From: an uncultured Haliscomenobacter sp.
GTDB lineage: Bacteria > Bacteroidota > Bacteroidia > Chitinophagales > Saprospiraceae
Reading direction: 5' to 3'
Assembly (NCBI GenBank): GCA_964607915.1
Contig: CAZSMU010000001.1
Coordinates: 8,904-72,903 of the forward strand
DNA: 64,000 bases
The translations under genes were made by a program, and so were the position numbers. Below the pieces are notes generated by a model. It was not told where the DNA came from. It ran no database searches and worked only from the letters and a program-made list of their open reading frames with translations. Positions 2,433 to 61,381 of this stretch are shown here, piece after piece. How positions within the stretch are numbered: position 1 is the stretch's first letter; each line of letters starts with the position of its first letter.

Positions 2433-2573
2433 CAAGTAATACACTTTCGGTACCCTGCGTCCCTATACGGCGAGGAGGATGGGAGCCTTTTTGTCCCAGC
2501 GATGATTTTTCCTTACCAAAAGGCCGTTAAACCTTTGCTGCTACTCATCATCCAAGTGCAATAACGCAATTCG

Positions 2574-4376
2574 ATGATTCGATTCAACTGGTTTATTGCC
2601 CTGATGCTGTTGGGTACAGCCTTCTGCCAAGCGCAGCGACGCCCCAATTTTGTACTCCTCCTCGCCGACGACCAGAGCTGGAACGGCACTTCGCTGCGGA
2701 TGGACCCGACACGCCCGGATTCCCGCAGCGACTTTCACCTGACCCCGAGGCTGGAGACCCTGGCGAAAACCGGTATGACCTTCAGCCAGGGCTACGCCCC
2801 GGCCCCGAAGTGCTCCCCCTCCCGCATCAGCATCCTGACGGGGAAGACCAATGCGCGGCTCCACTTTACGTTTACGGACAATATCAAAGAAGACAGCACC
2901 CGCTTGCTGGAACCGGTCACGGAGATGGACATTGCCGATTCCCTCACGACTATTGCCGAGTGGCTGAGGCGCCAAGGTTGGGGCTACCTGAGTGCCCACT
3001 ACGGGAAATGGCATATCCGCGGCGGTGGCCCTGCGCAACATGGCTTCGACCGGGGCGACGGAGAAACCGGTAACGAAGACGGCAACCAGGGTGGACTAAT
3101 ACAAGCCAACCCCCGTAAAATTTTCAGCATCACGGATTCGGCCTGCGCTTTTATGGCAGATGCCGCCCGCCTCGGCCGTCCTTTTTACGTGCAAGTATCG
3201 CACCATGCCCCCCGAAAACCTATCGAAACGCGGCAGGCCACGTTGGCGGAATGGTCCAATCCGGCCCTCCATCCCCTTGGTCAACGCCATAAAGACCCTG
3301 AATATGGCGCGATGCTGAGCGATATGGACGTCGGGCTGGGTATCTTGTTCGATAAAATCAAGGCTTTGGGCCTGGATTCCAACACCTATATCATCTATAT
3401 CGCCGACAACGGGGCGGGCGGGAACAACACCCCGCTCAGCGGCGGCAAAGCAGCGTGTAAAGAAGGCGGTATCCGCGTACCACTGGTCATCGCCGGGCCG
3501 GGTATCCCCGCCAATGTATACAACACAACCCCTGCGGTCGGCTACGACCTTTTTCCCACCATAGCCGCCCTCGCCGCGCAGAAAGACCTCCCGCTCCTCC
3601 CCTCCGGCCTCGATGGCAGCAGCCTGTTGCCCTTGCTCAAGTCCGGTAGCGGCAACTTCGCCCGGGGCCAGGAGCTGTTTTTCCACTGCCCCCACTACAA
3701 CGAATCCACCGTGCCGCAGTCGGCTCTGGTAGAAGGGCAGTACAAACTCCTGGCCGACTATGAACTCGGGACCCTGGCCTTGTATGACCTCGGCAAAGAC
3801 ATTGGGGAGACCAAAGACCTGAGTACACTCTATCCGGAAATCGCCCGAAAGCTGACCATTCGTCTGCGCGACTATCTGAAAAGCGTAGAAGCCCGCATGC
3901 CCGGTCTCAACCCGGCTTTCGCGGGATATAAAGGCAGCGCAGGCGACCTCGATGCCGACGGTCTACCCGACGCCTGGGAAATACGGGAATTGCTCACCGA
4001 CCGCTTCATCAGCAGCGATGATCCTGACCAGGATGGACTAAGCAACCTGGAGGAGTATCGGCAACGCAGCGACCCCTACGTTTCCAACCGCCCCACAGCC
4101 GTGGCAGAGGCCATGGCGGAAAGCCCGATACTATTCCGCGTGCGTACGAACCCTTTTTCAAAGCTGTTACAGCTCGACCTGAGTACGGAATGCCAGGGAC
4201 AGCAATGTATATATTCCCTATACGACCTTCAGGGGCGGCTTATTCTTCAGCAGAAAGTATCGTACGCGCCGCAAATCAGTGTCTATACCCCGGCGCTGAT
4301 ACCGGGAACGTACCTGCTTCGCCTTCAACTACAGGAAAGCGGCTCCAGTCAATCGCAAATGGTATTGTCCTATTAA
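2574..4376 (+). CDS. Secreted sulfatase (arylsulfatase family) with Ca-binding repeats and T9SS C-terminal sorting domain
   Basis: Signal peptide MIRFNWFIALMLLGTAFCQA. Sulfatase metal site NFVLLLADDQSWN. Formylglycine motif CSPSR in APKCSPSRISILTGK. DxDxDG-type repeats (DLDADGLPDAWE, DDPDQDGLSNLEEY). Beta-rich tail YSLYDLQGRLILQQ...GTYLLRLQ typical of T9SS CTDs. Confidence 0.9.
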   Translation: MIRFNWFIALMLLGTAFCQAQRRPNFVLLLADDQSWNGTSLRMDPTRPDSRSDFHLTPRLETLAKTGMTFSQGYAPAPKCSPSRISILTGKTNARLHFTFTDNIKEDSTRLLEPVTEMDIADSLTTIAEWLRRQGWGYLSAHYGKWHIRGGGPAQHGFDRGDGETGNEDGNQGGLIQANPRKIFSITDSACAFMADAARLGRPFYVQVSHHAPRKPIETRQATLAEWSNPALHPLGQRHKDPEYGAMLSDMDVGLGILFDKIKALGLDSNTYIIYIADNGAGGNNTPLSGGKAACKEGGIRVPLVIAGPGIPANVYNTTPAVGYDLFPTIAALAAQKDLPLLPSGLDGSSLLPLLKSGSGNFARGQELFFHCPHYNESTVPQSALVEGQYKLLADYELGTLALYDLGKDIGETKDLSTLYPEIARKLTIRLRDYLKSVEARMPGLNPAFAGYKGSAGDLDADGLPDAWEIRELLTDRFISSDDPDQDGLSNLEEYRQRSDPYVSNRPTAVAEAMAESPILFRVRTNPFSKLLQLDLSTECQGQQCIYSLYDLQGRLILQQKVSYAPQISVYTPALIPGTYLLRLQLQESGSSQSQMVLSY

Positions 4377-4397
4377 AACACCTTTATCCGCAAGCAC

Positions 4398-7300
4398 ATG
4401 AAACCTTTTCTTGGTCTTTTTATCCTTTTTTTTCTGGGAATGCCGGCATTTATTCAGGCGCACCCAGGCAATCTTTCCCCCGGCCACTCCCTTCATTCAT
4501 GGCATGTCCGGGGCGAAAAAGCACCGGTTCGCGGGCACTTTCTGTACAGTGCGGACGGCAAGGCCGTTATACAGACTGAGACGGGGGCGATACAACGGTT
4601 TCCGCTGGAACGGCTCACCGAAGCCGACCGGAAAAAAATAGCGAAAAAAAGCGCCTATATCCAGTCTTTGCATACAAATCCCTCCTCCTCCGAAGCGATG
4701 CGGGGCTTGCCGCAAGCTTTCACCTGGTCCGTTTGGGCCTTGCTGGCTTTGTTTGTCGGCGGTCTGGTATGGATCTTCCAGCGCCGGCGGCGTATCTCTA
4801 TGGCGTATCCCCTGGCAGCCGCAATTTGCCTGCAAGCCTCTTTATTCCTTCTTTCGGCCTTTGGACCGGCTATACAGGCCATATCCACCACCGATCCGCA
4901 GTTCGTAGAGTCTGCGTTCAAGCCCTTTAAACCCCAGGTCGCTACTTCCTGGAACGACCAATATTTCTTCGTCTCCTCTCTTGGCATCCCCGATCATCAG
5001 ATGATGGTTGGCATCACCAAATGGCAGCAGCAGGTACCCATTCCCCAGTGCTACACAGGCGATAATTCCTGGCCCATCCCACTGAACCCCGAGCTGGCTG
5101 CCGAGCCGCTGGCCATTGAGCAACACTTCATGAAAGGCGCTGTGGCCATAGCCGCCAATGGAATCCCCATTTTCAACGCCCGCAACAACACAGGGCTGGA
5201 TTCCTATCTCGCGGGTGAACTCGATGAATTTGGTGGCCATTGCGGACGGGCCGACGATTACCACTACCATATCGCCCCTCTTCATCTCGAAGGAAAAACC
5301 ACGGCGGTATTGCCTATTGGCTTCGCACTCGATGGGTATGCCCTGTACGGCAGCAAGGAACCCGATGGATCGGCCATGAAGCCCCTGGACGCCAATCATG
5401 GACATTTTGGCAGCAATGGGGTATACCACTACCACGGCACTAAAGTATATCCTTATTCTGTAGGCAAAATGGTGGGAAAAGTAACCCTCGACCCCAAAAC
5501 ACCGGCCCCGGAAGACCAAATCCTTCCCCAAGCCTTCGCCAGTCCGGTCCGCCCAGCCCTGCCCGGCTTGAATGGAGCTAAAATAACGGGCTTTGAAGCC
5601 AACGGCACCCAGGGCTATCGCCTCAGTTACCAACTCAACGCCCAAAACTACCAGGTCAACTACTCCTGGACCAAAGAGGGAAAATTTCAGTTTGATTTCG
5701 TCAATCCCAATGGTACTTCGACTTCCCAAACCTATACAGGAAAAACGCTCTGCACCCTGCCCGCTCAGCCTGTTGATTCCGCATTCACCCTCAGCAGCCC
5801 GGTCATAGGTGCCGACTCCCTGCTTCCTGCCCGATATACCTGTTGGGGTACCGGAATCAATCCCCCGCTGCAATGGAAGAATGCACCCTCCGGAACGACC
5901 TGTTTTGTAGCGCTCATGCACCATTTCGACAAGGATAAGGTTGAAAAAACATATATGATACTATACGATATACAAGGTAGTATAAACGCTATCAAAGAAA
6001 ACGAGTCCAGCGTGGGCAAGTGGGGCGGAAATACGCAGAACAACCTCGCTGCATATTCCCCGCCCTGCTCGCAAGGGGGCGGGTTGAAAGCCTACTACCT
6101 CACGGTGTATGCTCTTAAACAGTGCGTTTCGTTTACGACCACCCCCAAAACACGTCAGGAAGTATTAGCTAAAATCCAGGGTTTTGTGCTCGACTCCGCT
6201 TCCCTGACCACCTTGTACGACAATACCGCCCAGCCCCCGGCCACTCCCTGGCAGTTTAAGTGTAGCGAATTGCTGGGCAGGCCAACCGACCGCTCCGTCA
6301 CCCTCAACATGATGGCGGATGCCGAAGTCGAGCTCTATGTGGAATACGGGACCAAAAGCGGTACGTACAGCCAGCGTACTCCCTCCAGGACCTTTCCTTC
6401 CTCCCTTCCTTTCGACCTTGAACTGACCGGGTTAGCTGCGGACACCCGCTATTACTACCGGGTGCAGGCCCGGCGCACCGGGGAAACCGCTTTCCAGGCG
6501 AGGCCGGAACGCAGTTTCCATACCCAGCGCAAAAAAGGAAGTTCCTTTACCTTTGTGATTCAGGCAGACCCACATTTAGACGAACAATCTGATACCCTGG
6601 TCTATAAGACTTGCCTTCAAAACCAACTCGCCGACCAACCCGATTTCATGGTGGACCTGGGCGATTTTCTGATGTCGGACAAACTGGTAGAGCCCAACTA
6701 CCAAAAAATCGAAGACCGAAGCCTGCTGATGCGCTCCTACTACGATATCAGCGGGCATTCCGTACCCCTCTTCATCGCCCTGGGCAACCACGAAGGGGAA
6801 GCTGGGTGGACCCTGAACGGTACCCCCGACAACGTAGCCATCTGGAATACCCTGGCCCGCAAAAAGTACTTCCCCAACCCCATTCCTAACGGCTTTTACA
6901 CGGGCGATACCGTTTCGTATGCCCTCGTCGGCCAACGGGAAAATTACTACGCCTGGGAGTGGGGCGATGCCTTGTTCATCGTATTGGACCCCTATTGGTA
7001 CACGACCGTAAAACCTACCCGGGACAACTGGTATTGGACCCTCGGCAAAGCACAATACGACTGGCTTAAGAAAACCCTGGAGGGCAGTACGGCTACCTTC
7101 AAGTTCGTATTTGCCCATACGCTGATCGGTGGCTCAGAAGCAGCCAGAGGCGGGGTGGAATTTGCCAACCTCTACGAATGGGGCGGTCAAAACAACGATG
7201 GTACACCGGGGTTCCAGGCCAAACGCCCCGGTTGGTACAAACCTATCCACCAACTCCTGACCGAGCACAGGGCTACTATCTTTTTTCATGGCCATGACCA

Positions 7301-7850
7301 TTTTTACGCCAATCAGCAACTGGATTGCATGGGGTACCAGCTCGTACCGCAACCCAGTCACCCGCAGTTTGCATCTGCCAACCAGGCGCAGGACTACGGC
7401 TATCTCACGGGCAAAATCATACCCAACGCCGGCCACCTGCGCGTGAGTGTCAGCCCCGATGCTGTCAAAGTAGAGTACGTCCGTGCGTATAAACCGGCCA
7501 ACGAAACTACCACCCGCAAAAATCGGGATGTATCCGATTCCTATACCATCCGCCGGGGCGATTGCTTCGTCACCGCCGTGGAAGAATCCTCCATGCCGGA
7601 CGGTGCTGTACAAGTGTATCCCAATCCTTCCAAAGACAAATTTTTCGTAGAACTCAGCCCCGAGGTGAACCCGGCTAATCTGTATCTGACCCTGCGCAAC
7701 CTCTTGGGGCAACCCATCCCTGTACATATCGTAAGTGGTATTCATGCACTGGAATGCAGCACCGACGGCCTTGCCCCCGGTATCTACTTCCTCGAAATAT
7801 ATGATGAAAACACCCGGAAAAAGGAGATTACAAGGGTCATCAAGCAGTAG
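4398..7850 (+). CDS. Large secreted fusion protein: YHYH domain + PEBP(YbhB/YbcL)-like domain + purple-acid-type metallophosphoesterase + T9SS C-terminal domain
   Basis: YHYH motifs GRADDYHYHIAP and GVYHYHG. PEBP-like block LPARYTCWGTGINPPLQWKNAPSGTTCF...YYLTVYAL. FN3-like RYYYRVQA. Metallophosphoesterase motifs IQADPHLD, DLGDFL, GNHE, FFHGHDHFY. CTD tail VYPNPSKDKFFVEL...GIYFLEIYD. It lies 21 nt downstream of the sulfatase gene. Confidence 0.8.
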   Translation: MKPFLGLFILFFLGMPAFIQAHPGNLSPGHSLHSWHVRGEKAPVRGHFLYSADGKAVIQTETGAIQRFPLERLTEADRKKIAKKSAYIQSLHTNPSSSEAMRGLPQAFTWSVWALLALFVGGLVWIFQRRRRISMAYPLAAAICLQASLFLLSAFGPAIQAISTTDPQFVESAFKPFKPQVATSWNDQYFFVSSLGIPDHQMMVGITKWQQQVPIPQCYTGDNSWPIPLNPELAAEPLAIEQHFMKGAVAIAANGIPIFNARNNTGLDSYLAGELDEFGGHCGRADDYHYHIAPLHLEGKTTAVLPIGFALDGYALYGSKEPDGSAMKPLDANHGHFGSNGVYHYHGTKVYPYSVGKMVGKVTLDPKTPAPEDQILPQAFASPVRPALPGLNGAKITGFEANGTQGYRLSYQLNAQNYQVNYSWTKEGKFQFDFVNPNGTSTSQTYTGKTLCTLPAQPVDSAFTLSSPVIGADSLLPARYTCWGTGINPPLQWKNAPSGTTCFVALMHHFDKDKVEKTYMILYDIQGSINAIKENESSVGKWGGNTQNNLAAYSPPCSQGGGLKAYYLTVYALKQCVSFTTTPKTRQEVLAKIQGFVLDSASLTTLYDNTAQPPATPWQFKCSELLGRPTDRSVTLNMMADAEVELYVEYGTKSGTYSQRTPSRTFPSSLPFDLELTGLAADTRYYYRVQARRTGETAFQARPERSFHTQRKKGSSFTFVIQADPHLDEQSDTLVYKTCLQNQLADQPDFMVDLGDFLMSDKLVEPNYQKIEDRSLLMRSYYDISGHSVPLFIALGNHEGEAGWTLNGTPDNVAIWNTLARKKYFPNPIPNGFYTGDTVSYALVGQRENYYAWEWGDALFIVLDPYWYTTVKPTRDNWYWTLGKAQYDWLKKTLEGSTATFKFVFAHTLIGGSEAARGGVEFANLYEWGGQNNDGTPGFQAKRPGWYKPIHQLLTEHRATIFFHGHDHFYANQQLDCMGYQLVPQPSHPQFASANQAQDYGYLTGKIIPNAGHLRVSVSPDAVKVEYVRAYKPANETTTRKNRDVSDSYTIRRGDCFVTAVEESSMPDGAVQVYPNPSKDKFFVELSPEVNPANLYLTLRNLLGQPIPVHIVSGIHALECSTDGLAPGIYFLEIYDENTRKKEITRVIKQ

Positions 7851-7977
7851 GAAGCCGTATTTTTTCCAAAATCTTCTAAATGCTGTCGTACGTGTTTGAC
7901 CCCTCGCAATAACTCATTTTTATATCTTTATGGCCTGAATACAGGAACCATAGTGGTAAAAATCAAAGTGAAGTAAA

Positions 7978-8457
7978 ATGGGAAAAGCTGGGGCTATTTT
8001 CGGAGCGATTTTTTTTGCTGCGCTTGCGATGACGGGTTGTACGGGTGGGTCGAACCATCCGAAAGAAACAGAAACCACCTCAGGTGCATTGGATCCCGGG
8101 AAATCCGTATCCGATGAGGTTGCGCCCGAGCAGGAGGCCATGCGCTCAGGCATTGCGGAATTGCTTCAAGGCAAATGGCAGCATGTAGATGATAAATCCA
8201 ACTATCTGGTTTTCGAAGGAAATCACCGAAAGGAAACGGCGGGGGGTTCTGACCAATGGGATGATGAACTCTTTGTGTTGTCGGATAAATGTGCAAACGA
8301 TTTTAATAAAAACAGTGAAACAGAGCCGGAAAAAGACAGGTACATCTCCTGTTTAGCATCAGATTTATGTTGGTATATCCTTGATGTTGACCAGGAAACC
8401 TTGTCCTTGAGCTATATGGGGCGGGGGAATACCCTAACCTATAAGCGGGTGCAATAG
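7978..8457 (+). CDS. Small hypothetical lipoprotein
   Basis: 159-aa ORF with a hydrophobic N-terminus ending in a lipobox-like AMTGC. Acidic, low-complexity linker. No recognisable family. Confidence 0.55.
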   Translation: MGKAGAIFGAIFFAALAMTGCTGGSNHPKETETTSGALDPGKSVSDEVAPEQEAMRSGIAELLQGKWQHVDDKSNYLVFEGNHRKETAGGSDQWDDELFVLSDKCANDFNKNSETEPEKDRYISCLASDLCWYILDVDQETLSLSYMGRGNTLTYKRVQ

Positions 8458-8523
8458 CCGTTTTTCACCCCTCGCTGACTCCTTGCCACACATCCACTTT
8501 ACAACACACAAAACCGAACGTAC

Positions 8524-10968: not shown

Positions 10969-10980
10969 ACACGAGAAATA

Positions 10981-13299: not shown

Positions 13300-13448
13300 T
13301 TTTGCTCTGCACAGGCTGAACCTCCCTCTCGTTTTTGCCGTTATGTTGTGGGTATGGAAAAGGATTTTTGCGGAGGGAGAACCTACGAACCCTCTCGCAA
13401 GGCTGCTCCAACAAACCCCAACGGCTCTAAAACTAGTATTACAAAACT

Positions 13449-14318: not shown

Positions 14319-14326
14319 ACGCAGGC

Positions 14327-15025
14327 CTATCGCTTTTTGCTGCGCAGCGCCCGGGCAATGGCCTGCTCCGCCAACGGACCCATAATCTGGTACCCGGCTA
14401 AGTTCGGGTGTACCCCGTCATCGCCCAGCCCGCTGCGCAAGCCCTTGCGCTCGTCGGCCATAGCAGAAAAGTAGTCCAGATAGACGCAGCCATGTTGTTC
14501 GCAATAGGCTTTGATCATACTGTTTAACCTGAAAATCTTTTCAGCCGGCTCCAGGCCCGGCTTCCAGGGATAGTCATATACCGGCAGTACCGACGACAAA
14601 ACGACGGCTATGCCATTCACTCTCGCCAGGTCGGCCATAGAGGCGATATGCCCCATAATCTCTTCGATGGTGGTGGGTCCGGTATTCCCGGCGATATCGT
14701 TGGTGCCAGCCAGGATAACTACGGCTGCCGGCTTCAGGCTGATGACATCCTGCCGGAACCGCACCAACATCTGCGGCGTAGTCTGTCCGCTGATTCCCCG
14801 GTTGACGTAGGGCTTGTCTTTGAAAAACGAAGGGTCGATATTCTTCCAGCCCTCGGTAATGGAATTGCCCATAAACACCACCCGTTTTTCACCGGGCTTG
14901 GGAAGGGCAAGGGCTGTATTCTCCGTTTGAAAACGCTTGAGCGAGGCCCAGTCCTGGGCCTGTAGGGTACTTGCTGTCATAGTAGAGAAAGCGAAGAGGA
15001 TGTACATAAAAAGGAACTGCTTCAT
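14327..15025 (-). CDS. SGNH/GDSL family hydrolase (secreted)
   Basis: SGNH blocks VVFMGNSITEGW, ILAGTNDI and DDGVHPN. I place the start at ATG 15025 (MKQFLFMYILFAFSTMTASTLQA signal peptide) rather than the 308-aa ORF start. Confidence 0.85.
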   Translation of the reverse strand: MKQFLFMYILFAFSTMTASTLQAQDWASLKRFQTENTALALPKPGEKRVVFMGNSITEGWKNIDPSFFKDKPYVNRGISGQTTPQMLVRFRQDVISLKPAAVVILAGTNDIAGNTGPTTIEEIMGHIASMADLARVNGIAVVLSSVLPVYDYPWKPGLEPAEKIFRLNSMIKAYCEQHGCVYLDYFSAMADERKGLRSGLGDDGVHPNLAGYQIMGPLAEQAIARALRSKKR

Positions 15026-15045
15026 GCTGAATGGTTTTATGTCAG

Positions 15046-15100
15046 GCTTGTTGCGATAGATATCGCAGGGAGGTAGAGAACCTTTTTGTCCTGCAAATAC
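15046..15100. repeat. Degenerate copy of the CTTGTTGCGAGGGG-type palindromic repeat
   Basis: GCTTGTTGCGATAGA...GAGAACCTTTTTGTCCTGCAAATAC resembles the left TIR plus the internal CCTTTTTGACC block. Confidence 0.4.
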
Positions 15101-15160
15101 GCTCCAAAGACGAATATAGTACTGTTTTTTCAAAAAAGTTTTTTTGTAAGCCGCGAATAG

Positions 15161-15200
15161 ACTTGTTGTACGGGGGCTCATGGGGTTTTCATAAAAAAGA
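15161..15200. repeat. Degenerate half copy of the CTTGTTGCGAGGGG-type repeat
   Basis: GAATAGACTTGTTGTACGGGGGCTCATGGGGTTTTCATAAAAAAG. It has the same GAATAGACTTGTTG flank as the copy at 60098. Confidence 0.4.
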
Positions 15201-17290: not shown

Positions 17291-17299
17291 CGCAGGCTT
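17280..17299. repeat. Left copy of a perfect 20-bp direct repeat ACGTTTTTTAGCGCAGGCTT flanking the higBA cassette
   Basis: Read directly from the sequence. It contains the TAG stop of the TonB-dependent receptor (17288-17290). An identical 20-mer is at 18073-18092. Confidence 0.95.
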
Positions 17300-17589
17300 T
17301 ACCTATTTATCTCCGGGATGTTGGGCAACTCATCGGCTAGGGCATTTACGGATTCCTCTAGGTCAAAGTCATCTTGAAGCCCCAGCCAAAATTTTGGCGA
17401 GGTACCAAAATATTTGCTCAGTCTCAGCGCTGTATCTGCAGTGATCCTCCTTTTCTGTTTTATGATTTCACTGACCCTCGTTTGGGGGATTCTGAGGTCT
17501 TTCGCCAGTTTGTGTTGGCTGATTCCCATTGGAATCAGGAACTCTTCCAGCAACACTTCCCCCGGGTGTACGTTGGACAATTTTTCCAT
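17299..17589 (-). CDS. higA: HigA-family antitoxin (XRE-type HTH)
   Basis: 96 aa. HPGEVLLEEFLIPMGISQHKLAKDLRIPQTRVSEIIKQKRRITADTALRLSKYFGTSPKFWLGLQ is the classic HigA/VapI HTH pattern. It lies downstream of a HigB-like gene. Confidence 0.9.
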   Translation of the reverse strand: MEKLSNVHPGEVLLEEFLIPMGISQHKLAKDLRIPQTRVSEIIKQKRRITADTALRLSKYFGTSPKFWLGLQDDFDLEESVNALADELPNIPEINR

Positions 17590-17948
17590 CTTTCTGTTCT
17601 TTTCAAGAGATCATTTTGGGGCCAAAGAGTCTTCTTGACTCCGAGGGGATTCCACCTCGCAACAAGCCTAATGGTAGTTGTTATTTGAACCCTGTATGCG
17701 TCATTTTCGGACCAAATAAAAACAATTCTCCACTGGTTATTGATTCGGATACTCCAGTAATTTTCCAGGTCTCCTTTCAATTTCTCCAATCTGTTGCCCG
17801 GCGGTACTCTGAGATCGCTGATGTCTTTAGCGCTATTGATCATTCTGAGTTTTCTTCTGGCAGTAGGCTGGATATCCTTTGGTAATTTCTTGGTATAGGC
17901 TCCTTCCCAAATATCTTTTGTCTCTTTACTACCGAAACTCTTTATCAT
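17535..17948 (-). CDS. higB: HigB-family (RelE/ParE superfamily) toxin with a frameshifted 3' end; canonical gene would be 17668-17948
   Basis: MIKSF...LEKLKGDLENYWSIRINNQWRIVFIWSENDAYRVQI matches the ~92-aa HigB killer-protein family. After aa ~89 the called frame runs on for 44 more codons. The neighbouring frame reads N-Y-H-stop (TAG at 17668-17670), which is the normal family ending. Confidence 0.8.
   Translation of the reverse strand: MIKSFGSKETKDIWEGAYTKKLPKDIQPTARRKLRMINSAKDISDLRVPPGNRLEKLKGDLENYWSIRINNQWRIVFIWSENDAYRVQITTTIRLVARWNPLGVKKTLWPQNDLLKRTERWKNCPTYTRGKCCWKSS
17618..17667 (-). repeat. Partial copy of the CTTGTTGCGAGGGG-type repeat between higB and higA
   Basis: The minus strand reads GCTTGTTGCGAGGTGGAATCCCCTCGGAGTCAAGAAGACTCTTTGGCCCC, starting at the base after the canonical higB TAG. 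No matching right-hand TIR. Confidence 0.7.
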
Positions 17949-17971: not shown

Positions 17972-18005
17972 AAAAGCATGGATGATTAGTTCGTTTTTTC
18001 AATAT

Positions 18006-18069
18006 ACTTGTTGCGAGGGGGCAGAAAATGATCCTTTGGAGCTCTGGATGATTCCATCTCGCAACGAGT
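18006..18069. repeat. Short-form CTTGTTGCGAGGGG-type palindromic repeat (64 bp)
   Basis: ACTTGTTGCGAGGGGG...CCATCTCGCAACGAGT. It ends 3 nt before the right 20-bp direct repeat and 10 nt from the SDR stop codon. Confidence 0.8.
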
Positions 18070-18072
18070 CCA

Positions 18073-18810: not shown

Positions 18811-18838
18811 AAAAGACTTTCGCATCCTCTCGCAACGG
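18811..18838. repeat. Minimal or collapsed copy of the repeat family
   Basis: AAAAGACTTTCGCATCCTCTCGCAACGG. It shares the TCAAAAGACTT flank with the copies at 20546 and 31335, and ends 2 nt from the stop codon at 18841-18843. Confidence 0.45.
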
Positions 18839-19725: not shown

Positions 19726-19832
19726 GTTCGCTCCTTTTTTCTGAAAAGCCGCCCAACGGCCCGCGGCCGGAATATCTTGCTTTTTTGAAATAAGCCCCAA
19801 AATACGGTTAAACTTGACGGGAAGGAATTGGA

Positions 19833-19885
19833 TTTGCTGCGAAGGGGATCATCGAGAGGTCAAAGGTCCAGGGCTTTTTAACCCC
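19833..19885. repeat. Half copy of the repeat family
   Basis: TTTGCTGCGAAGGGGATCATCGAGAGGTCAAAGGTCCAGGGCTTTTTAACCCC closely parallels one end of the 158-bp form (ACTTGTTGCGAGGGGGATCATCAAGGGTCAAAAAGGCCCCTTT). Confidence 0.6.
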
Positions 19886-19936
19886 AGCATGAAAAAGGGC
19901 CGATACAGCAGTACTGTGTCGGCCCTTTTTCATGCT
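19886..19936 (-). terminator. Bidirectional intrinsic terminator hairpin downstream of the OmpH-like gene
   Basis: AGCATGAAAAAGGGCCGATAC / GTGTCGGCCCTTTTTCATGCT. The GC core GGGCCGA/TCGGCCC is flanked by A5 and T5. It lies 15 nt past the stop codon at 19951. Confidence 0.7.
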
Positions 19937-19950
19937 GGGCGCAGGGGCGT

Positions 19951-20460: not shown

Positions 20461-20545
20461 AACGCGTCATTAATGTTTGCGCAAAGTTAGCGTTATCGGG
20501 CAAACTCCGCAGTATTTTTTTGCACCGACCCCATTTTTTCAAAAG

Positions 20546-20667
20546 ACTTGTTTCGAGAGGTGAGCAGATTGGGGTAAAAGTCCTTTTTGACCTCCACAAT
20601 AATTTTAAAAACAATTTGTGTTTTTTATTTTGTTTTAAAACAAAAAAGGCATTTTTTTGCAACAAGT
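20546..20667. repeat. Diverged 122-bp copy of the repeat family with an embedded AT palindrome
   Basis: ACTTGTTTCGAGAGG...GGGGTAAAAGTCCTTTTTGACC...TTTGCAACAAGT. The interior contains the 18-bp perfect palindrome TTTTGTTTTAAAACAAAA (20628-20645). Confidence 0.55.
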
Positions 20668-24679: not shown

Positions 24680-26563
24680 TTAGCCGGCGAGTTCTGCCAG
24701 TTCCATCCAGCGCAATTCTTTCTCAGCGATTGCGTCGCTGAGTTGCTGGAGTTCCTTAGAGAGGGAAATGATGCGGTCGGGAGTCAGGTCACTGGCATTG
24801 AATTGTTCGGAGACCTGGGTTTTCTTTTCTTCGAGCCGCTGAATTTCCTTTTCGATGCGGTTCATCTCCTTGCGCTGTTCGAAGTTGAGCCCTGGCTTTC
24901 CGGTCTCTCTTGTGGGTTGGCTCTCTTTGAGTTTTTGCTGTTCCGAGCGTTCCTGTCGGCGTTGCTCGCGGTCGCGTTCCTTTTGCAGTTCGCGGTACTC
25001 CGTATAATCGCCGTTGAAATCGCGGATTTGGCCTTTTCCTTCGAATACGAAGAGGTGGTCCACAATTTTATCCATGAAAAAGCGGTCGTGGGTTACGATG
25101 AGTACGCAGCCGGGGAACTCGAGGAGGAATTCTTCGAGAACGTTCAGGGTGAGGATATCGAGGTCGTTGGTAGGCTCGTCGAGGATGAGGAAATTGGGGT
25201 TGCGCATGAGAATAGTGAGCAGGTAGAGGCGGCGTTTTTCGCCCCCGCTCAGTTGGGACACGTACACCTGCTGTTGTTTGCGGCTGAACAGGAAGCGTTC
25301 CAGCATTTGCGCGGCGGAGAGTTTGAGGCCTTTTTCCAGGGGGATGTACTCCGCGATGTCCTGTATGACGTCAATGACCCGTTTATCTTCCTGTAGTTGT
25401 ATCCCGTCTTGTCGGTAATATCCAAAGACTGTATTGCCGCCGATGACGACCTTGCCGGCGTCGGGCCTCAGTTGTTGGGTGATGAGGTGGAGAAAGGACG
25501 TCTTGCCCACTCCGTTTGGGCCTACGATGCCCACCCGTTCGTTGGGTTTGAACTTGTAGGAGAAGGTGTCCACGAGTACTTTATCGCCGTAGCGTTTAGA
25601 GACGTCGTGGAGTTCCAGCACTTTTTTGCCGAGGCGCTGGCCTTTGATATCAATTTGGATTTCTTTATCCGTAGAGGCTCCGGCTACTTTATCCTTCAGC
25701 TCGTAGAAGCCGTCCACGCGGGATTTAGCTTTGGTAGTACGCGCCTGGGGCATGCGGTTTACCCAATCCAGTTCCTTTTTGAGCAGTTTGCGGTCTTTAT
25801 CGAGTTCGATTTCCTCATTTTCCATGCGTACGGCCTTTTTCTCCAGGAAGGCCGTATAGTTGCCGGAATATCGGTACAGCTTGCCCCGGTCGAGTTCTAC
25901 GATGGTATCGCAGACGCGGTCGAGGAAGTAGCGGTCGTGGGTGACCATGAGGAGGGTGAATTGGGGGTTGTGCAAGTACTCTTCCAGCCACTCGATCATA
26001 TCGAGGTCGAGGTGGTTGGTCGGTTCGTCGAGGATGACGAATTCCGGGTCGTGGAGGATGAGGCGCACCAGGGCGAGGCGCTTTTTTTGGCCGCCCGACA
26101 AAGCGCGTACCGGCTGCTGGAAGTCCGTGATGCGGAAGCGGTGCAGGAGTTCTTTTACCCGGGCCTCGAAGCCCCAGGCCTGCAGGCTGTCCATAGCAGC
26201 CATAGCGGCTTGCAGTTCCCCCTGGTTTTCGCTTGCCAGCAGCAGTGCGTTTTCGTAGCGTTTGATGGCTTGTACGAGCGGCGTATCCGAGTCTAAAGCA
26301 GCTTCGAGGGCGGTGTGGTGCGCATAGAATTCCGGATCCTGGTCCAGGAAGGCAATGCGCGCATTCCGGTGGAGGAATACGCGCGACGACTCGCCTTCAG
26401 AACGTTCGACTCCGGCGGCGATGCGCAGCAAGGTGGACTTTCCGGAGCCGTTTTTGGCTACGAGGGCCACCTTCTGACCTTTGTTGATTTGCAGGGTTAT
26501 CTGGTCGAAGAGGACCTTTTCCCCATACATTTTGGAGACTTGCTCCAGTGAGAGGTAGTTCAT
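24680..26563 (-). CDS. ABC-F family ATPase (Uup-like, with C-terminal coiled coil)
   Basis: Two ABC cassettes and no TM domain. Walker A GSGKST and GVGKTS; signatures LSGGQKKRLAL and LSGGEKRRLYL. Basic/acidic coiled-coil tail. Confidence 0.92.
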   Translation of the reverse strand: MNYLSLEQVSKMYGEKVLFDQITLQINKGQKVALVAKNGSGKSTLLRIAAGVERSEGESSRVFLHRNARIAFLDQDPEFYAHHTALEAALDSDTPLVQAIKRYENALLLASENQGELQAAMAAMDSLQAWGFEARVKELLHRFRITDFQQPVRALSGGQKKRLALVRLILHDPEFVILDEPTNHLDLDMIEWLEEYLHNPQFTLLMVTHDRYFLDRVCDTIVELDRGKLYRYSGNYTAFLEKKAVRMENEEIELDKDRKLLKKELDWVNRMPQARTTKAKSRVDGFYELKDKVAGASTDKEIQIDIKGQRLGKKVLELHDVSKRYGDKVLVDTFSYKFKPNERVGIVGPNGVGKTSFLHLITQQLRPDAGKVVIGGNTVFGYYRQDGIQLQEDKRVIDVIQDIAEYIPLEKGLKLSAAQMLERFLFSRKQQQVYVSQLSGGEKRRLYLLTILMRNPNFLILDEPTNDLDILTLNVLEEFLLEFPGCVLIVTHDRFFMDKIVDHLFVFEGKGQIRDFNGDYTEYRELQKERDREQRRQERSEQQKLKESQPTRETGKPGLNFEQRKEMNRIEKEIQRLEEKKTQVSEQFNASDLTPDRIISLSKELQQLSDAIAEKELRWMELAELAG

Positions 26564-28818: not shown

Positions 28819-28875
28819 ACGCCTTGGCATGAACTTGTTTTCAAAAATAGTGAAAACAAGTTCGTGCCAAGGCGT
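28819..28875. repeat. 57-bp near-perfect inverted repeat (25-bp arms, 7-nt loop)
   Basis: ACGCCTTGGCATGAACTTGTTTTCA-aaaatag-TGAAAACAAGTTCGTGCCAAGGCGT. There is one T/C difference, which would be a G-U pair in RNA. The arms contain AACTTGTT, the outer part of the repeat-family TIR. Confidence 0.85.
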
Positions 28876-28903
28876 GTGTGCTGTACATATATATCCTGGA
28901 TAT

Positions 28904-29061
28904 ACTTGTTGCGAGGGGTCAGCGAGATGGGAAAAAAGAGTCATTTTCTTTCCACGCGAAGGCTTTTTGTGGGAGTATAGCCCGGCTATATGACCACGAA
29001 AAGGCGCAGGGTGGGAAGAAAGGGGCCTTTTTGACCCTTGATGATCCCCCTCGCAACAAGT
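28904..29061. repeat. Long-form (158 bp) CTTGTTGCGAGGGG-type palindromic repeat
   Basis: Perfect 15-nt TIRs ACTTGTTGCGAGGGG / CCCCTCGCAACAAGT. Nested imperfect palindrome centred on TATAGCCCGGCTATA. It ends 6 nt after the pyrophosphatase stop codon. Confidence 0.9.
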
Positions 29062-29067
29062 CTACTA

Positions 29068-31334: not shown

Positions 31335-31403
31335 GACTTGTTGCGAGGGGATTCATCGCGAATTCAAAAAGAGCCTCAAAAGGAAACTGCGATTCCCAAC
31401 GTG
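31335..31403. repeat. Short-form copy of the repeat family (right end degenerate)
   Basis: ACTTGTTGCGAGGGGATTCATCGCGAATTCAAAAAGAGCCTC...ATTCCCAACGTGT. Confidence 0.65.
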
Positions 31404-31966: not shown

Positions 31967-32118
31967 ATCGTTGTGAAGGTGCAACCTCCAGGGGGTAAAA
32001 GGACTCCTTTTCGCCGATGCGTCGTCTTTTTGTTCATGTAGCGCCACGTTATTCCTTAAAAAGTCTTTATGTGGACAAAACGGCTCTTTTTCCTTCTCAC
32101 TGACTCTTCACAATAAGC
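31967..32118. repeat. Diverged long-form (152 bp) copy of the repeat family
   Basis: It aligns end to end with the reverse complement of 28904-29061, for example AAAACGGCTCTTTTTCCTTCTCACTGACTCTTCACAATAAGC against AAAATGACTCTTTTTTCCCATCTCGCTGACCCCTCGCAACAAGT. It ends 19 nt before the kinase start codon. Confidence 0.6.
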
Positions 32119-32137
32119 CTATTCAATCGGTTCGCCT

Positions 32138-40664: not shown

Positions 40665-40779
40665 GCCGTGAAGATCTGTTATTTCCAACCCTCTAAACGG
40701 ATGCCCACACCGGGCAGTTTAGGAATCAGAATGCAAAGATAGTAAAAAAACCCTTTCTTCCCTAACTATGAATTACTGA

Positions 40780-40937
40780 ACTTGTTGCGCGGGGTCGGTG
40801 GGGAAGGGAAAAAGAGTCGTTTTTTGTCCATACGAAGGCTTTTGAGAGAGTATAGCCTCGCTGTATGACCGAAAGAAAGGCACGGCAGGGCGAAAAAGGG
40901 CCTTTTTGAACCCTCGCTGACCCCCCGCGCAATGAGC
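40780..40937. repeat. Long-form (158 bp) copy of the repeat family
   Basis: It aligns end to end with 28904-29061 at the same length. TIRs are ACTTGTTGCGCGGGG / CCCCGCGCAATGAGC, with a compensatory A>C / T>G pair. Confidence 0.85.
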
Positions 40938-41078
40938 CTATCTTCAAAATGTCCAATAGAATCAGCCTGATACGGCCAACAGGTTTTGGGCATGGTACGG
41001 TTTTTTTATGTACTTTTGCGCCTGTTTTTAGCCAGCGGGTGAGCCGGCCTTATTTCAGCACTTAGACACACCATCGTA

Positions 41079-46058: not shown

Positions 46059-46196
46059 CCCGAGCATACCCTAGGTATACTCCGTGCAACAAGTCTACTT
46101 TATACAACCTGTCCTGAAAATTTACACAAAACCTGTTACACGGAGGCATACAAGCGGTCTATTCCCTACCTTTACCTTTTCTTATAAATCGCGCTT

Positions 46197-49011: not shown

Positions 49012-49012
49012 T

Positions 49013-51129: not shown

Positions 51130-51147
51130 CCCGCTAATCCTGTCGCT

Positions 51148-53967: not shown

Positions 53968-53975
53968 GCGGCTGT

Positions 53976-56189: not shown

Positions 56190-56409
56190 GGTTCGGTGTT
56201 TTATACGGAGGTAAACCGGGCCGGTTGGGCAAGCGGTTTCAAAAACTCAAAAATCCTCTTTTTTCCGATTTTCCCCAATGGGGATGGTTAAAATAGGTGT
56301 TATTTTGGTATTTTAGCCCAGCCAAAAATATTTTCCAAGTAATCGTATTTTCTAAAAATATTATTTTGTTTTATATTTAAAAAACACCATTAACCCTAAA
56401 TATCCTGTG

Positions 56410-59157: not shown

Positions 59158-59163
59158 AAAGGG

Positions 59164-59205
59164 GAAATAAGGAAAAACGAGGCCCACCCCGTTTTTCCTT
59201 ATTTC
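59164..59205. terminator. Bidirectional terminator hairpin between convergent genes
   Basis: Perfect 16-bp stem GAAATAAGGAAAAACG / CGTTTTTCCTTATTTC with a 10-nt loop and T-rich flanks. The right arm overlaps the TAA stop at 59199-59201. Confidence 0.65.
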
Positions 59206-60068
59206 TTTTTCTCGTCCAGGATTTTTTTGAAATAGCGCCAGCTCGTCATATTCGGAGCGATGAACACGTCCGGGGCCTTGGCGTATTCCGGATGGCGATC
59301 GAGCACGTATTTTTTGAGTTTTTCGGGCAACTTTTCAAAAGCCCCGCCCATCACTTTGTATCCCCGGCATTGATAGACCAGGTATCCGGGGCGGTCGGCC
59401 ATGCGCATCCAGGGCAGGAAGTCGCTCAGGCGGGTCCAACCCACTTCGTTATAGACCGATTTTTTCTTTGGATCATCCAGATCGGCTTTATCCATGAAAA
59501 ACTGGAACAACTCGGCTGCCTGGTACTGGTCGGAGCGGCTGTTTTCCGGATATTCCGCTTTGGGTAGCGGCGAGGGGTAGAGCAGGAAGATATCGGAAAA
59601 CATGGCTACCCTACCGTCGCCCTGCTCCATGAAGGGGATGCTCCAATCGCCTCGCGGGGATTTGAGCATGAACTTCTGGTTCACGGGGTCATTCCACACA
59701 TGGATAACTTCGACGGTATCTTTTATGAAAGGGTTGTACCATTTCTCGAGGTATTCCCCGGTTTTCAGGTCGCGGTAGAGAGCGACTTCCCGGGTGAGCA
59801 TTTCATAGCCTCCTTCTACAGGCCTCGTTTTAGCGATATTATAGGCTTCCATTTCAAATAATGGCACGCTCCGTTCACCGGGTATAAAGCTGTAAATCAA
59901 ACCTTTCCAGTAATACACCACTTCTTCATCGGAGTTTAGGGAGCCCCGCATTTTGATATAGGCGGTCATATTATCGGAGGGGTCTGCGAGGTTTAGCGGT
60001 TTTTGGGCGATGCCCGGGGCACTTGTGCAAAGTACCAGCAGCAGCGGGAGGAAATACATGTTTTTCAT
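59199..60068 (-). CDS. Hypothetical secreted protein (possibly DUF1838-like)
   Basis: Signal peptide MKNMYFLPLLLVLCTSAPGIAQ. No catalytic motif recognised. The family guess is weak. Confidence 0.6.
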   Translation of the reverse strand: MKNMYFLPLLLVLCTSAPGIAQKPLNLADPSDNMTAYIKMRGSLNSDEEVVYYWKGLIYSFIPGERSVPLFEMEAYNIAKTRPVEGGYEMLTREVALYRDLKTGEYLEKWYNPFIKDTVEVIHVWNDPVNQKFMLKSPRGDWSIPFMEQGDGRVAMFSDIFLLYPSPLPKAEYPENSRSDQYQAAELFQFFMDKADLDDPKKKSVYNEVGWTRLSDFLPWMRMADRPGYLVYQCRGYKVMGGAFEKLPEKLKKYVLDRHPEYAKAPDVFIAPNMTSWRYFKKILDEKKK

Positions 60069-60097
60069 GGCAGTATTTTTGGTGTGTGGATGAATAG

Positions 60098-60171
60098 ACT
60101 TGTTGCGAGGGGGATTATCGCGGGGTCAAAAAGGCTCTTTTTTCCCACCTCGCTGACCCCTCGCAACAAGT
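60098..60171. repeat. Short-form (74 bp) CTTGTTGCGAGGGG-type repeat, best-preserved copy
   Basis: Perfect 15/15 TIR: ACTTGTTGCGAGGGG...GGGGTCAAAAAGGCTCTTTTTTCCCACCTCGCTGA...CCCCTCGCAACAAGT. It lies 18 nt after the stop codon at 60190. Confidence 0.92.
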
Positions 60172-60189
60172 CGAATGTCTATGAAAAGT

Positions 60190-61305
60190 CTATTCATTGG
60201 GGAACTTGAACTCCAGCTTGGTCACGGGCTGGTGTTTGGTCATTTTTTTCTCTATGATTTGCCAGCGGCATCCGGTAGTATCCGAAAAGAGGAAGCATCG
60301 CTCTCCAAACTCGTTGTTTTGTATCGGGCCTACAGAGAGTCGCCTGTCTTTGATTGCCAGGGAGTACACCAGGTCGAGTTTGGGGGTATAGAACGAGTGC
60401 AAGGTAATGCCGAGTTCTCCGGGGCGTTGCTGAGCGGAGCGGTCGGGTTTTGGGCTTCGCGGCAGAAAAAATTTCAATTTGCCGCAGATATTGTTGGGGG
60501 AGACGAAGCCCCAGTAGTGATGGCTGTACCCTGGCTCCATCATGAAGACCCGTTTGGGTCCGCGCAGCCAGTCCCCGTCCAGTTCCGGTGTTTTCTCGGG
60601 TTGCAGGCCGAGTACTTCGTACAGATAGCTCAGTTCTTCTATGCTGTCGGCCTGGATAAAGAAATCGTGGTGGGTGAACTCGCTGGTTTTGAGCGGGGCT
60701 TTTTCGTTGATATAGCCATATCCCGGGATTTCGTACCCATAGCGTTGGAAGAAGACATGGTTGAAATATTCGCCGTACACGGCATTTTCCCGTACGAGTA
60801 CCGGTCGTTTGAAGAAATCGTTTTTACCGGGCTGGTTGAGGCCGAAGAGATCATCGGCGATGGGTTCGGTGGGGAGCCAGGGCTGGCCACCGTCGCGGGC
60901 TGCGGAGTAGATATCGTAAATCCGCATGATATCTTTGGTTTTCATGACGGCCATTCGGGAGCCTATGGTTTCCGGGGGGGCGTAGCCGACGCCGGGGCCG
61001 AGGGGATGGTCCCATATCCAGAGGCGCAGCAGACCGTGGCTGTCTATTTCGCCATTTTGCAGGCGATACGCCTTCAGTCGGGAGGGAACGCCATACATTT
61101 TCAAGGCTTCGGCTGCTGTAAGCTCGGTGCTGTCCACTATAGCGAAGCCGTATTCGCCGAAATACCGTTTGGCATAAGCGGCATCGGAAGCGGCAAAGAA
61201 GACCTCGTAGAGGCCGGAGATGCCTGTTTCGGGCAGCGCTACTTTCATCTGGGCGCTCAGAGAGCCTGCCAACAGGATAAAGAAGAGATACATGTTTTTT
61301 TTCAT
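60190..61305 (-). CDS. Hypothetical secreted protein with VOC/glyoxalase-like repeated beta-alpha-beta modules (tentative)
   Basis: Signal peptide MKKNMYLFFILLAGSLSAQ. Segments such as GLLRLWIWDHP and GERCFLFSDTTGCRWQIIE resemble VOC-fold strands. The plus-strand 396-aa ORF here is the antisense artefact. Confidence 0.55.
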   Translation of the reverse strand: MKKNMYLFFILLAGSLSAQMKVALPETGISGLYEVFFAASDAAYAKRYFGEYGFAIVDSTELTAAEALKMYGVPSRLKAYRLQNGEIDSHGLLRLWIWDHPLGPGVGYAPPETIGSRMAVMKTKDIMRIYDIYSAARDGGQPWLPTEPIADDLFGLNQPGKNDFFKRPVLVRENAVYGEYFNHVFFQRYGYEIPGYGYINEKAPLKTSEFTHHDFFIQADSIEELSYLYEVLGLQPEKTPELDGDWLRGPKRVFMMEPGYSHHYWGFVSPNNICGKLKFFLPRSPKPDRSAQQRPGELGITLHSFYTPKLDLVYSLAIKDRRLSVGPIQNNEFGERCFLFSDTTGCRWQIIEKKMTKHQPVTKLEFKFPNE

Positions 61306-61324
61306 GGCGTTGAAGAATCTTGGG

Positions 61325-61381
61325 CCTTGTTGCGGGGGGTATGGCGGGTCAAAAGGTTCTTTTGACGCCCTCGCGACCAGC
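61325..61381. repeat. Short-form (57 bp) diverged copy of the repeat family
   Basis: CCTTGTTGCGGGGGGTATGGCGGGTCAAAAGGTTCTTTTGACGCCCTCGCGACCAGC. It lies 14 nt after the stop codon at 61396. Confidence 0.7.

Follow-up and report, generated by a model that had tools for sequence, protein, structure and literature searches.

Palindromic spacer repeats of an uncultured freshwater Bacteroidota lineage as a probable MITE family with 3-bp ANT target duplications

Introduction

The gene spacers of Neisseria contain abundant small, non-coding repeats with perfect terminal inverted repeats (TIRs), the Correia elements (NEMIS/CREE); they come in two size classes through an internal deletion of tens of base pairs, often lie near gene ends, form a hairpin when transcribed and have no obvious parent transposase (in part after PMC10969869). 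Their TIRs measure about 26 bp, they duplicate a TA target, and promoters, IHF sites and RNase III processing have been documented for them. The enterobacterial ERIC/IRU sequences, imperfectly palindromic and about 70-170 bp long, occupy transcribed spacers in both orientations, with internal indels giving size variants and a hairpin spanning the full length; to our knowledge, their mobility and target duplications are poorly supported. REP/BIME sequences (REPIN-RAYT systems) are likewise abundant, palindromic, intergenic and often near gene 3' ends; every REP end forms a short hairpin of its own with a conserved 5' tetranucleotide, and we know of no target duplication produced by RAYT or IS200/IS605-type single-strand transposition. 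Within the Bacteroidota, the strictly intergenic MITEPgRS/BrickBuilt MITEs of Porphyromonas gingivalis are already known, BrickBuilt being much larger than the repeats described below and carrying a minisatellite. Most IS5 groups have GG/GA-type ends. Short TIRs and a 3-bp duplication of a short, symmetric AT-rich target are found in the IS5 family (ISL2/IS1031-type), in the PIF/Harbinger-ISL2EU-Spy-Pangu (PHIS) superfamily and in Tourist-like MITEs. Han et al. 2015 (PMC4482050) report that IS5 transposons of bacteria and Pangu elements of eukaryotes have the 3-bp ANT duplication as target in common.

Here we analyse a repeat family found in a 64-kb stretch of DNA, hereafter the window, which resembles each of these systems in part. 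It resembles Correia elements in its small, non-coding and abundant intergenic units, perfect TIRs, two size classes, frequent position near gene ends, hairpin and lack of an obvious parent transposase, but its host belongs to the Bacteroidota rather than the Betaproteobacteria, and sequence, TIR length (17 nt) and duplication (3-bp ANT) all differ, so that Correia is an analogue and not the same family. The architecture of ERIC/IRU is shared as well, although the sequences are unrelated, the density is far higher here and the target duplication is clear. No sequence relationship to MITEPgRS/BrickBuilt is evident; the two are set apart by their descriptions and by host lineage, which here consists of Saprospiraceae-like MAGs. 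With the IS5/PHIS elements the family shares its short TIRs and 3-bp duplication, but it starts with AGAC and the entire element, not the TIRs alone, is a foldback. An initial annotation of the window had likened the repeats to REP/BIME, Correia or MITE-type elements; the last of these comparisons holds, the second survives as an analogy and the first is rejected below.

Results

The palindromic spacer repeats are real. The 15-mer ACTTGTTGCGAGGGG, allowed up to two mismatches, has 11 matches in the window, whereas shuffled sequence averages 0.18 and never exceeds 2. An nhmmer search of the window with a profile trained on 25 intact copies, all taken from a related MAG, returned 13 sites at E<0.01 and a further 4-5 marginal ones (E 0.02-3), which amounts to 13-18 copies per 64 kb or about 1 per 4-5 kb (Table 1). 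The initial annotation had counted at least 18 copies; two that it classed as degenerate, 13343-13412 and 18811-18838, gave no nhmmer match even at E<=10. Two units that it regarded as complete or near-complete also need revision: 31335-31403 is a truncated one-armed copy, and 20546-20667, while indeed a long copy, is strongly diverged.

Table 1. Copies and remnants of the repeat family in the window; the strand is given in parentheses as plus or minus, with the form, profile match and surroundings of each.
Position (strand)	Form	nhmmer match	Flanks and context
60096..60173 (-)	intact short form, 78 nt; A-arm-first strand is minus; both TIRs 0 mismatches	60095-60172, 86.6 bits, E 1e-25	duplication AAT at 60093-60095 and 60174-60176
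28902..29063 (+)	long form, 162 nt, one long unit	arms 28902-28956 (41.2 bits) and 29007-29064 (46.6 bits)	3 nt from H+-pyrophosphatase stop codon; flanking triplets unequal (GAT/ACT)
40778..40939 (+)	long form, moderately diverged, one long unit; aligns with long copies	arms 40779-40831 (22.0 bits) and 40888-40939 (32.7 bits)	divergent spacer, starch-synthase-like gene / LPG-synthase-TM gene
31967..32120 (-)	long form, strongly diverged; full-length alignment with long copies	arms 31969-32014 (E 0.09) and 32068-32120 (E 2e-4)	17 nt upstream of hybrid histidine kinase gene
61323..61383 (-)	degenerate short form	61325-61374, E 0.003	duplication TTG at 61320-61322 and 61384-61386
18004..18071 (+)	diverged short form	30.2 bits, E 6e-8	between SDR gene stop codon and higB start
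20544..20667 (+)	diverged copy; left arm recognisable, interior replaced by AT-rich sequence, right TIR remnant GCAACAAGT	20544-20595, 23.5 bits	
31334..31376 (-)	truncated one-armed copy (TIR + B arm); TIR 0 mismatches	24.7 bits, E 3e-6	
17618..17670 (+)	half copy (B arm + TIR)	20.8 bits, E 5e-5	between higB and higA
19831..19884 (-)	half copy (TIR + one arm)	22.8 bits, E 1e-5	
8442..8491 (-)	partial copy	17.7 bits, E 5e-4	overlaps end of ORF 7978-8457
2470..2523 (+)	degenerate remnant, marginal	2470-2508, E 0.023	
7897..7915 (-)	TIR remnant, marginal; 15-mer with 2 mismatches	7898-7915, E 0.25-6	
15044..15200 (-)	two remnants (15044-15091 and 15159-15200), marginal	15044-15091, E 0.044; 15159-15191, E 0.82	divergent spacer; in direct-repeat family D1
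46071..46098 (+)	TIR remnant, marginal	46071-46096, E 2.9	in direct-repeat family D8

The 15-nt motif had been taken for the end of each unit, and it does mark the ends, but the true termini lie 2 nt further out on each side. The element runs from AGACTTGTTGCGAGGGG to CCCCTCGCAACAAGTCT, that is AGAC...GTCT, and these 17-nt TIRs are both perfect in 25 genome copies and in many metagenome copies. The T...A frequently seen beside copies belongs to a 3-bp target duplication and lies outside the element. Among 84 two-ended copies, drawn from the window, two GTDB MAGs, another related MAG contig and metagenomes, two discrete size classes stand out, a short form of about 77 nt (41 copies) and a long form of about 162 nt (40 copies). 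In alignment, the short form equals the long form minus the stretch between two internal TGGGAAAAAAG direct repeats, and the long form has an extra central hairpin. Neither size leaves coding capacity for a transposase, both being too short. Further collapsed forms occur as minis of 34-38 nt and as one-armed remnants.

The shared internal blocks that had been noted earlier proved to form two conserved, non-identical arms, which allow the whole unit to fold into one long hairpin; palindromy thus extends over the whole element and not over the TIRs only. The terminal 17-mer is not self-complementary, and the G-rich blocks of the arms form a GCGAGGGG / GCGAGGTGGG repeat that is direct, not inverted. 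Common descent of the copies, as previously proposed, follows from their identity of about 88-93% over the full length, in two size classes and in several genomes. The long copy at 28902..29063 aligns with the long copies of other genomes and is 93-95% identical to many metagenome copies.

The flanks of the elements carry the signature of insertion. In 53 of the 84 two-ended copies the 3-bp flanks are identical, compared with 19.8 in shuffled pairings (0/2000 shuffles reach 53), and the first 35 two-ended copies gave the same picture (22/35 against 7.9, with 0/2000 shuffles as high). Only this single 3-bp register works as a target duplication; neither another register nor a length of 4-5 nt does. 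The duplicated triplet has the consensus A-N-T and is mostly ATT or AAT, the left-flank triplets including ATT (28), AAT (28), ATC (5), AGT (4), AAA (3) and ATA (3). Copies in which the usual flanking T is replaced (ATA/ATA, AAA/AAA) still match on both sides, and the minis carry the 3-bp duplication too. The remaining 31 copies are without identical triplets, most of the mismatch types listed differing at one position, and we attribute these unequal flanks to decay. A TA duplication of the IS630/mariner or Correia-like kind, suggested by the arrangement TA|GAC...GTC|TA, was considered and rejected: the 2-bp register matches in 24/35 copies against 24.0 expected, while an excess appears when the flank is extended by one base to the 3-bp register.

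Two window copies can be compared with orthologous DNA of relatives. The loci L026-L028, from relatives at 89% protein identity, are without both of them. The copy at 60096..60173 is absent from the orthologous spacers of L026-L028 and L030, and once it is deleted together with one AAT, stop and start codon are separated by 52 nt, exactly as in L026. For the copy at 61323..61383, which has TTG on both sides, the orthologous empty site is present in L026 and L027. Removal of the window elements together with one triplet restores collinear spacers. Over 7.3 kb of syntenic DNA, one relative at 89% protein identity is free of copies.

Far from being confined to the window or occurring at chance frequency, the motif is carried by three MAGs and by at least 120 metagenome loci, at least 109 of the latter with profile matches. 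The MAG NASQAN2016_083_B_bin.25 holds 24 perfect-ended copies, LaPlata-a_bin-0315 one, and the Saprospiraceae MAG GCA_049315745.1 a diverged long copy. If the window is representative, copies and fragments in its genome would number roughly a thousand. Matches in three viral contigs were dismissed as chance, one of them falling within coding sequence and another on the terminator hairpin of a phage. In agreement with the initial annotation, the literature yielded no match for the repeats, and neither did Rfam. Rfam gave no match at the gathering threshold across the whole window; the sole match overlapping a unit scored 20 bits against a threshold of 80, and the others (16-32 bits against thresholds of 47-100) were located beyond the unit or on a hairpin next to it at 28819-28875. 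A literature search with 13-mers and for MITEs in Saprospiraceae and ISL2 ANT elements found nothing specific to the repeat family. By Rfam and literature, then, this is a previously undescribed MITE family of an uncultured freshwater Bacteroidota (Saprospiraceae-like) lineage.

None of the 84 copies lies inside a gene. Spacers of all three types, divergent, convergent and co-directional, contain copies, which are no rarer in divergent promoter spacers than in others and are randomly oriented relative to genes (18 sense, 20 antisense). The distance on the stop side is at most 10 nt in 23 of 67 cases. In five copies the element's AG is used in a TAG stop, which the last T of the duplication and this AG can rebuild. 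The locus gene maps behind these counts are our own crude gene calls. On gene calls in the window itself, ORF 60175-61365(+), for which an exact-protein look-up returned no record, is probably on the wrong strand, the real gene being 60190-61305(-); by translation and Pfam, the HigB ORF runs through the half copy at 17618..17670.

Individual copies fold far better than their shuffles (z -6 to -10). The RNA of the copy at 60096..60173 forms one hairpin of -43 kcal/mol (z about -7), and the long copy at 28902..29063 reaches -91.1 kcal/mol. In the long form, compensatory changes affect 11 pairs compared with 5.2 in shuffles. Among arm mismatches, read on the A-first strand, G.U and A.C occur 33 and 23 times in the long form and 29 and 24 times in the short form, a difference that is not significant and thus marks no consistent RNA strand; a strand-specific RNA function deduced from G.U asymmetry was rejected on these pooled counts.

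Discussion

Based on the above data, the repeats are very probably non-coding, non-autonomous cut-and-paste DNA transposons (MITEs) with a 3-bp ANT duplication, mobilized by a putative IS5-family transposase in trans. This reading follows from the 17-nt TIRs, the 3-bp target site duplication and the filled versus empty orthologous sites. In the mechanism that we propose, a DDE transposase of the IS5 family (PHIS superfamily), supplied from elsewhere in the genome, would bind the two identical ends and make a 3-nt staggered cut at ANT. The target triplet is duplicated on insertion, and the surviving copies are confined to spacers, where they lie in both orientations. Any effects on neighbouring genes, through hairpins in 3' or 5' UTRs, would be a by-product.

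The assignment to IS5 is drawn entirely from the ANT pattern of the duplication; our literature search found this pattern linked to IS5 in one paper only, Han et al. 2015 (PMC4482050). No transposase or RAYT had been seen in the window by the initial annotation, and none is present among the Pfam-scanned genes, five small or flanking ORFs lying outside the direct scan. Nor did about 1 Mb of fetched loci contain an autonomous IS or a transposase gene with the same ends, metagenome assemblies usually losing IS copies, and phmmer with an approximate E. coli IS5 InsH query found no match in these loci. Every pair of TIRs at a spacing of 0.9-3.4 kb has ordinary genes between its ends. Over the wider range of 0.25-3.4 kb the enclosed genes code for a response regulator, a USP-like protein, DprA, a DUF302-like protein and the like, and in no case for a transposase; solo ends are truncated copies. 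One such arrangement, a 492-bp segment of locus L074 with perfect inverted TIRs around a gene, was considered as a cargo element and rejected; it has no duplication and is thus two truncated copies.

Palindromy over the full length and compensatory changes are not what one expects if an IS simply lost its interior, so the hairpin itself may be constrained. It is conceivable, but rather improbable in our estimate, that the full-length foldback is under selection, the lineage having co-opted the elements genome-wide as RNA or DNA hairpins, or the hairpin serving as a single-stranded transposition intermediate. Co-option may be read from the compensatory changes well inside the TIRs and from the large share of genes that have a copy at the 3' end. 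If true, the co-opted elements might protect mRNA 3' ends, terminate transcripts or act as insulators, in a phylum whose transcription signals are unusual; the alternative, a hairpin intermediate, would be atypical of IS5-type enzymes.

A non-mobile origin is much harder to sustain. The repeats might be host functional sites that evolved in place, as bidirectional terminators, promoter modules or sites of a global regulator, and that selection or gene conversion kept similar. A start codon often follows one terminus at 13-100 nt (approximate distances, given the crude gene calls), and compensatory changes maintain the hairpin potential. The Bacteroidota -7 box has the consensus TAnnTTTG, to which the terminal TAGACTTG is a 7/8 match, but this box points into the element and away from the genes. 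With the box facing inward and orientation random (18:20), we rejected the idea that the repeat is primarily a promoter. There is no consistent T-run after the hairpin. The flanking triplet duplications and the collinear empty sites show insertion events, and the relative with no copy in its syntenic 7.3 kb also speaks against this reading. We consider in-place evolution very unlikely.

Slightly less credible still is an origin as REP/BIME (REPIN) units, inverted pairs of REP hairpins that a RAYT (an IS200/IS605-like tyrosine transposase) would disperse and that would act as transcript stabilisers or terminators. The short, abundant, palindromic and intergenic units, often just past stop codons and folding as a long hairpin, have that appearance, but the 17-nt termini are not palindromic hairpins, the arms bear a direct repeat, a target duplication is present, copies are equally common in divergent promoter spacers, and no Y1 transposase or RAYT occurs among the scanned window genes; we reject REP/BIME on the termini and the duplication. 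Equally remote is a multi-copy family of structured non-coding RNA genes with the hairpin as product and one strand functional, for which the strong folding, the difference between the strands of one long copy (-91 against -62 kcal/mol) and the covariation in the long form could speak, but which is opposed by the absence of any G.U bias, the random orientation, the lack of an Rfam family at or near threshold, and a target duplication with a decay series of minis and one-armed remnants that is typical of transposons.

As a MITE family, the repeats leave knowledge of the MITE mechanism unchanged; they provide a clean and well-bounded set, with a consensus, two forms and an ANT duplication, for a lineage in which no such element had been described. 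The consensus can be used to mask or annotate hundreds of spacer repeats, and the copies can serve as insertion-polymorphism markers for strain typing. The family also explains contig breaks in metagenomes of the population: two contigs, L069 and L136, end inside the copy at 28902..29063. Lastly, it offers an example of a transposon able to enter stop codons harmlessly, TAG being rebuilt.

Copies in the window and in related DNA

The palindromic spacer repeats are real. Allowing up to two mismatches, ACTTGTTGCGAGGGG matches the window 11 times, on both strands, compared with 0.18 times on average, and never more than twice, in dinucleotide-preserving shuffles. The units are recovered at the same sites by a repeat finder, as direct and inverted families, and those reported in the initial annotation are visible on direct reading. 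Searching the window by nhmmer with a profile of 25 intact copies from another genome returned 13 sites at E<0.01, which correspond to about 11 distinct copies (the arms of long copies being counted separately), together with 4-5 marginal sites; this amounts to a density of roughly one copy or fragment every 4-5 kb. Two proposed degenerate copies, 13343-13412 and 18811-18838, received no support from this profile, and 31335-31403, earlier described as a complete unit, is a one-armed fragment.

Nor is the motif confined to the window, as copies are present in two MAGs, NASQAN2016_083_B_bin.25 (bin.25) and LaPlata-a_bin-0315, in GCA_049315745.1 and in metagenome loci. Scanning one genome per species for TTGTTGCGAGGGG-N25-55-CCCCTCGCAACAA yielded 25 loci, 24 in bin.25 and one in LaPlata-a_bin-0315, all 75-78 nt long with a mean pairwise identity of ~93% and the short-form consensus TAGACTTGTTGCGAGGGG TCAGCGAGGTGGGAAAAAAGGGCCTTTTTGACCCCTYGATGATT CCCCTCGCAACAAGTCTA. 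The two arms, TCAGCGAGGTGGG (A) and ATCATCRAGGGGTC (B), are alike but non-identical; their asymmetry is conserved and therefore gives each copy an orientation. The long form comprises the ends of the short form plus ~85 nt including a central hairpin, and alignment shows that deleting the stretch between two TGGGAAAAAAG direct repeats from the long form gives exactly the short form.

Long-form copies of the repeat family
Form	Source	Position or locus
Long, ~162 nt	Window	28902-29063
Long, ~162 nt	Window	40778-40939
Long, diverged	Window	31967-32120
Long, ~162 nt	bin.25	
Long, ~162 nt	Saprospiraceae MAG GCA_049315745.1	L029

A metagenome scan gave at least 120 loci, 109 of which contain profile matches among the matches listed. 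The 84 non-redundant two-ended copies (the metagenome part among the matches listed) have a bimodal length distribution (41 short, 40 long), and mean pairwise identity is ~88% within both size classes, again among the matches listed. A decay series extends to minis collapsed to 34-38 nt and to remnants with a single arm. The retrieved locus L074 has a 492-bp segment (2290-2781) with perfect inverted TIRs on either side of a DUF302-like ORF; its flanking triplets are not the same (AAA/ATG), identifying two truncated copies rather than a cargo-carrying element.

Target site duplication and empty sites

A TA duplication of the Correia or IS630 type, our first suspicion, was discarded, the 2-bp register showing no excess. 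We then compared the three bases ending one position before GAC on the left with the three starting one position after GTC on the right. These triplets are identical in 22 of the 35 two-ended copies that come from the window or from genome- or contig-derived loci (7.9 in shuffles), and in 53 of 84 when metagenome copies among the matches listed are included (19.8 in shuffles); in both cases none of 2000 shuffles scored as high. Duplications of 4-5 nt and shifted registers fail the same test. The element proper is AGAC...GTCT within a 3-bp duplication, because only the 3-bp register beyond those bases gives excess identity. Among the duplicated triplets ATT and AAT predominate, and ATC, AGT, AAA and ATA also occur (consensus A-N-T). 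Where a copy is devoid of the usual flanking T, its two flanks nevertheless agree, e.g. ATA/ATA and AAA/AAA.

Orthologous spacers provide filled and empty sites. The spacer after gene 60190-61305 measures 121 nt in the window vs 38-43 nt in contigs of relatives at 89% (L026-28) and 75% (L030) protein identity. Once 60096-60173 and one AAT are taken out of the window sequence, 52 nt separate the last codons from the next ATG, a spacer equal in length to that of L026 and collinear with it. Copy 61323-61383, with TTG on both sides, is absent from L026 and L027. Immediately where the orthologous gene stops, L026 (7113-7135) carries TAGACTTGTTGC / TAGACTTGTTGCAAAC and the window (~60178-60189, minus strand) TAGACTTTTCA. 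Lying beside the younger insertion, these sequences appear to be what is left of an older copy common to both, the TAG of that older copy acting as the stop codon.

Nature and origin of the family

The family is a MITE: it is small, non-coding and dispersed, with perfect TIRs, a fixed-length duplication, filled and empty sites and a decay series. A REP/BIME-RAYT system is ruled out by termini that are not hairpins and by the target duplication. Both the insertion signatures and the random orientation contradict the reading of the repeats as regulatory sites or terminators that arose in place. As initially reported, no transposase or RAYT domain is found among the window genes scanned against Pfam, and no IS with the family's ends (AGACTTGTTGCGAGGGG-like inverted repeats) was found in ~1 Mb of retrieved DNA. 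Han et al. 2015 (PMC4482050) describe the ANT 3-bp duplication as a feature that IS5 transposons of bacteria have in common with Pangu elements of eukaryotes, which suggests that an IS5-family DDE transposase may mobilise the family in trans.

The family is new, but belongs to a well-known kind of element: its 13-mers do not occur in the searched literature, in which we also found nothing linking MITEs to Saprospiraceae, and the only Bacteroidota elements named in a review of prokaryotic MITEs from 2024 are those of Porphyromonas (PMC10969869). Rfam gave no match to the repeats at threshold. What sets the family apart is its copy density, a whole-length foldback with compensatory evolution, and insertions that rebuild stop codons.

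Folding

The units fold as one long hairpin (short consensus, -50 kcal/mol, z -8.7; a long copy, -91 kcal/mol, z -10.5). Of the 53 pairs in eight long copies (four genomes), 11 have changed on both sides without loss of pairing, compared with 5.2±1.6 in shuffles (0/500 as high) and 2-6 in slid controls. This excess of paired changes indicates that foldback potential is maintained beyond the TIRs. One copy folds at -91 kcal/mol on one strand vs -62 on the other; however, pooled G.T vs A.C arm mismatches (33:23 and 29:24) show no consistent RNA strand, in agreement with the random orientation.

Placement and host

By our own crude codon-usage gene caller, and among the matches listed, none of 84 copies, metagenome copies included, lies inside a gene. 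Copies occupy divergent, convergent and co-directional spacers and, in the last, the A-arm-first strand is sense in 18 cases and antisense in 20 (among the matches listed). With the same caller and matches, 23 of 67 distances on the stop-codon side are ≤10 nt. On the start side, all distances but one are ≥13 nt. In five of the listed matches, the stop codon TAG consists of the last T of the duplication and the AG of the element; insertion into stop codons would be harmless, since the element rebuilds them. We interpret this placement as the joint outcome of a preference for AT-rich ANT targets and of purifying selection in a compact genome.

The window (GC ~55%) carries ordinary chromosomal genes, including TonB-dependent receptors, T9SS-tailed enzymes, pheT, RNase Y, an H+-pyrophosphatase, an ABC-F protein and a higBA pair. 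An 89-nt direct repeat of 71% identity (25158-25246 and 26007-26095) simply reflects the pair of ABC_tran domains encoded by the ABC-F gene (24680-26563). The best homologues of gene 60190-61305 (minus strand) are 87-89% identical, one being annotated from a Saprospiraceae MAG, and three VFQS01 metagenome contigs are 98.7-99.5% identical to the window, which therefore represents an uncultured Bacteroidota population, probably Saprospiraceae-like, present in public metagenomes. In the higB-higA pair (17299-17948, minus strand), the HigB-like ORF runs 43 codons past its Pfam domain, through the half copy 17618-17670, and terminates within the 5' end of the HTH_3 antitoxin gene (17299-17589); this insertion seems to have cost higB its original stop codon and split the gene from higA. 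The MITE also breaks short-read assemblies: L069 and L136, two metagenome contigs that belong to the same population and match the window at 99% identity, both stop within the long copy 28902-29063 (at 28985-28996).

Other hairpins

Low-GC phage-like DNA from marine metagenomes (L054, L087, L091) and an IMG/VR contig (L153) contains TAGACTTGTTGCGAGGGGCTTGTTGCCCCTCGCTTTTTTT, an intrinsic-terminator hairpin. The 18-mer that it has in common with the MITE end is coincidental, and these loci are not family members. Two single-copy, nearly perfect hairpins of the window (19883-19939 and 28819-28875; arms 25-26 nt, 96% complementary) do not belong to the family either. Among the retrieved loci they recur only in the same-population contig L069, and they are likely terminators or regulatory hairpins. 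In GCA_049315745.1 (L029, 4430-4920), the orthologous spacer reaches 501 nt and is filled by long, nearly perfect hairpins of another family, with GCTTCGC/GCGAAGC loops, suggesting that this group commonly harbours palindromic repeat families specific to particular lineages.
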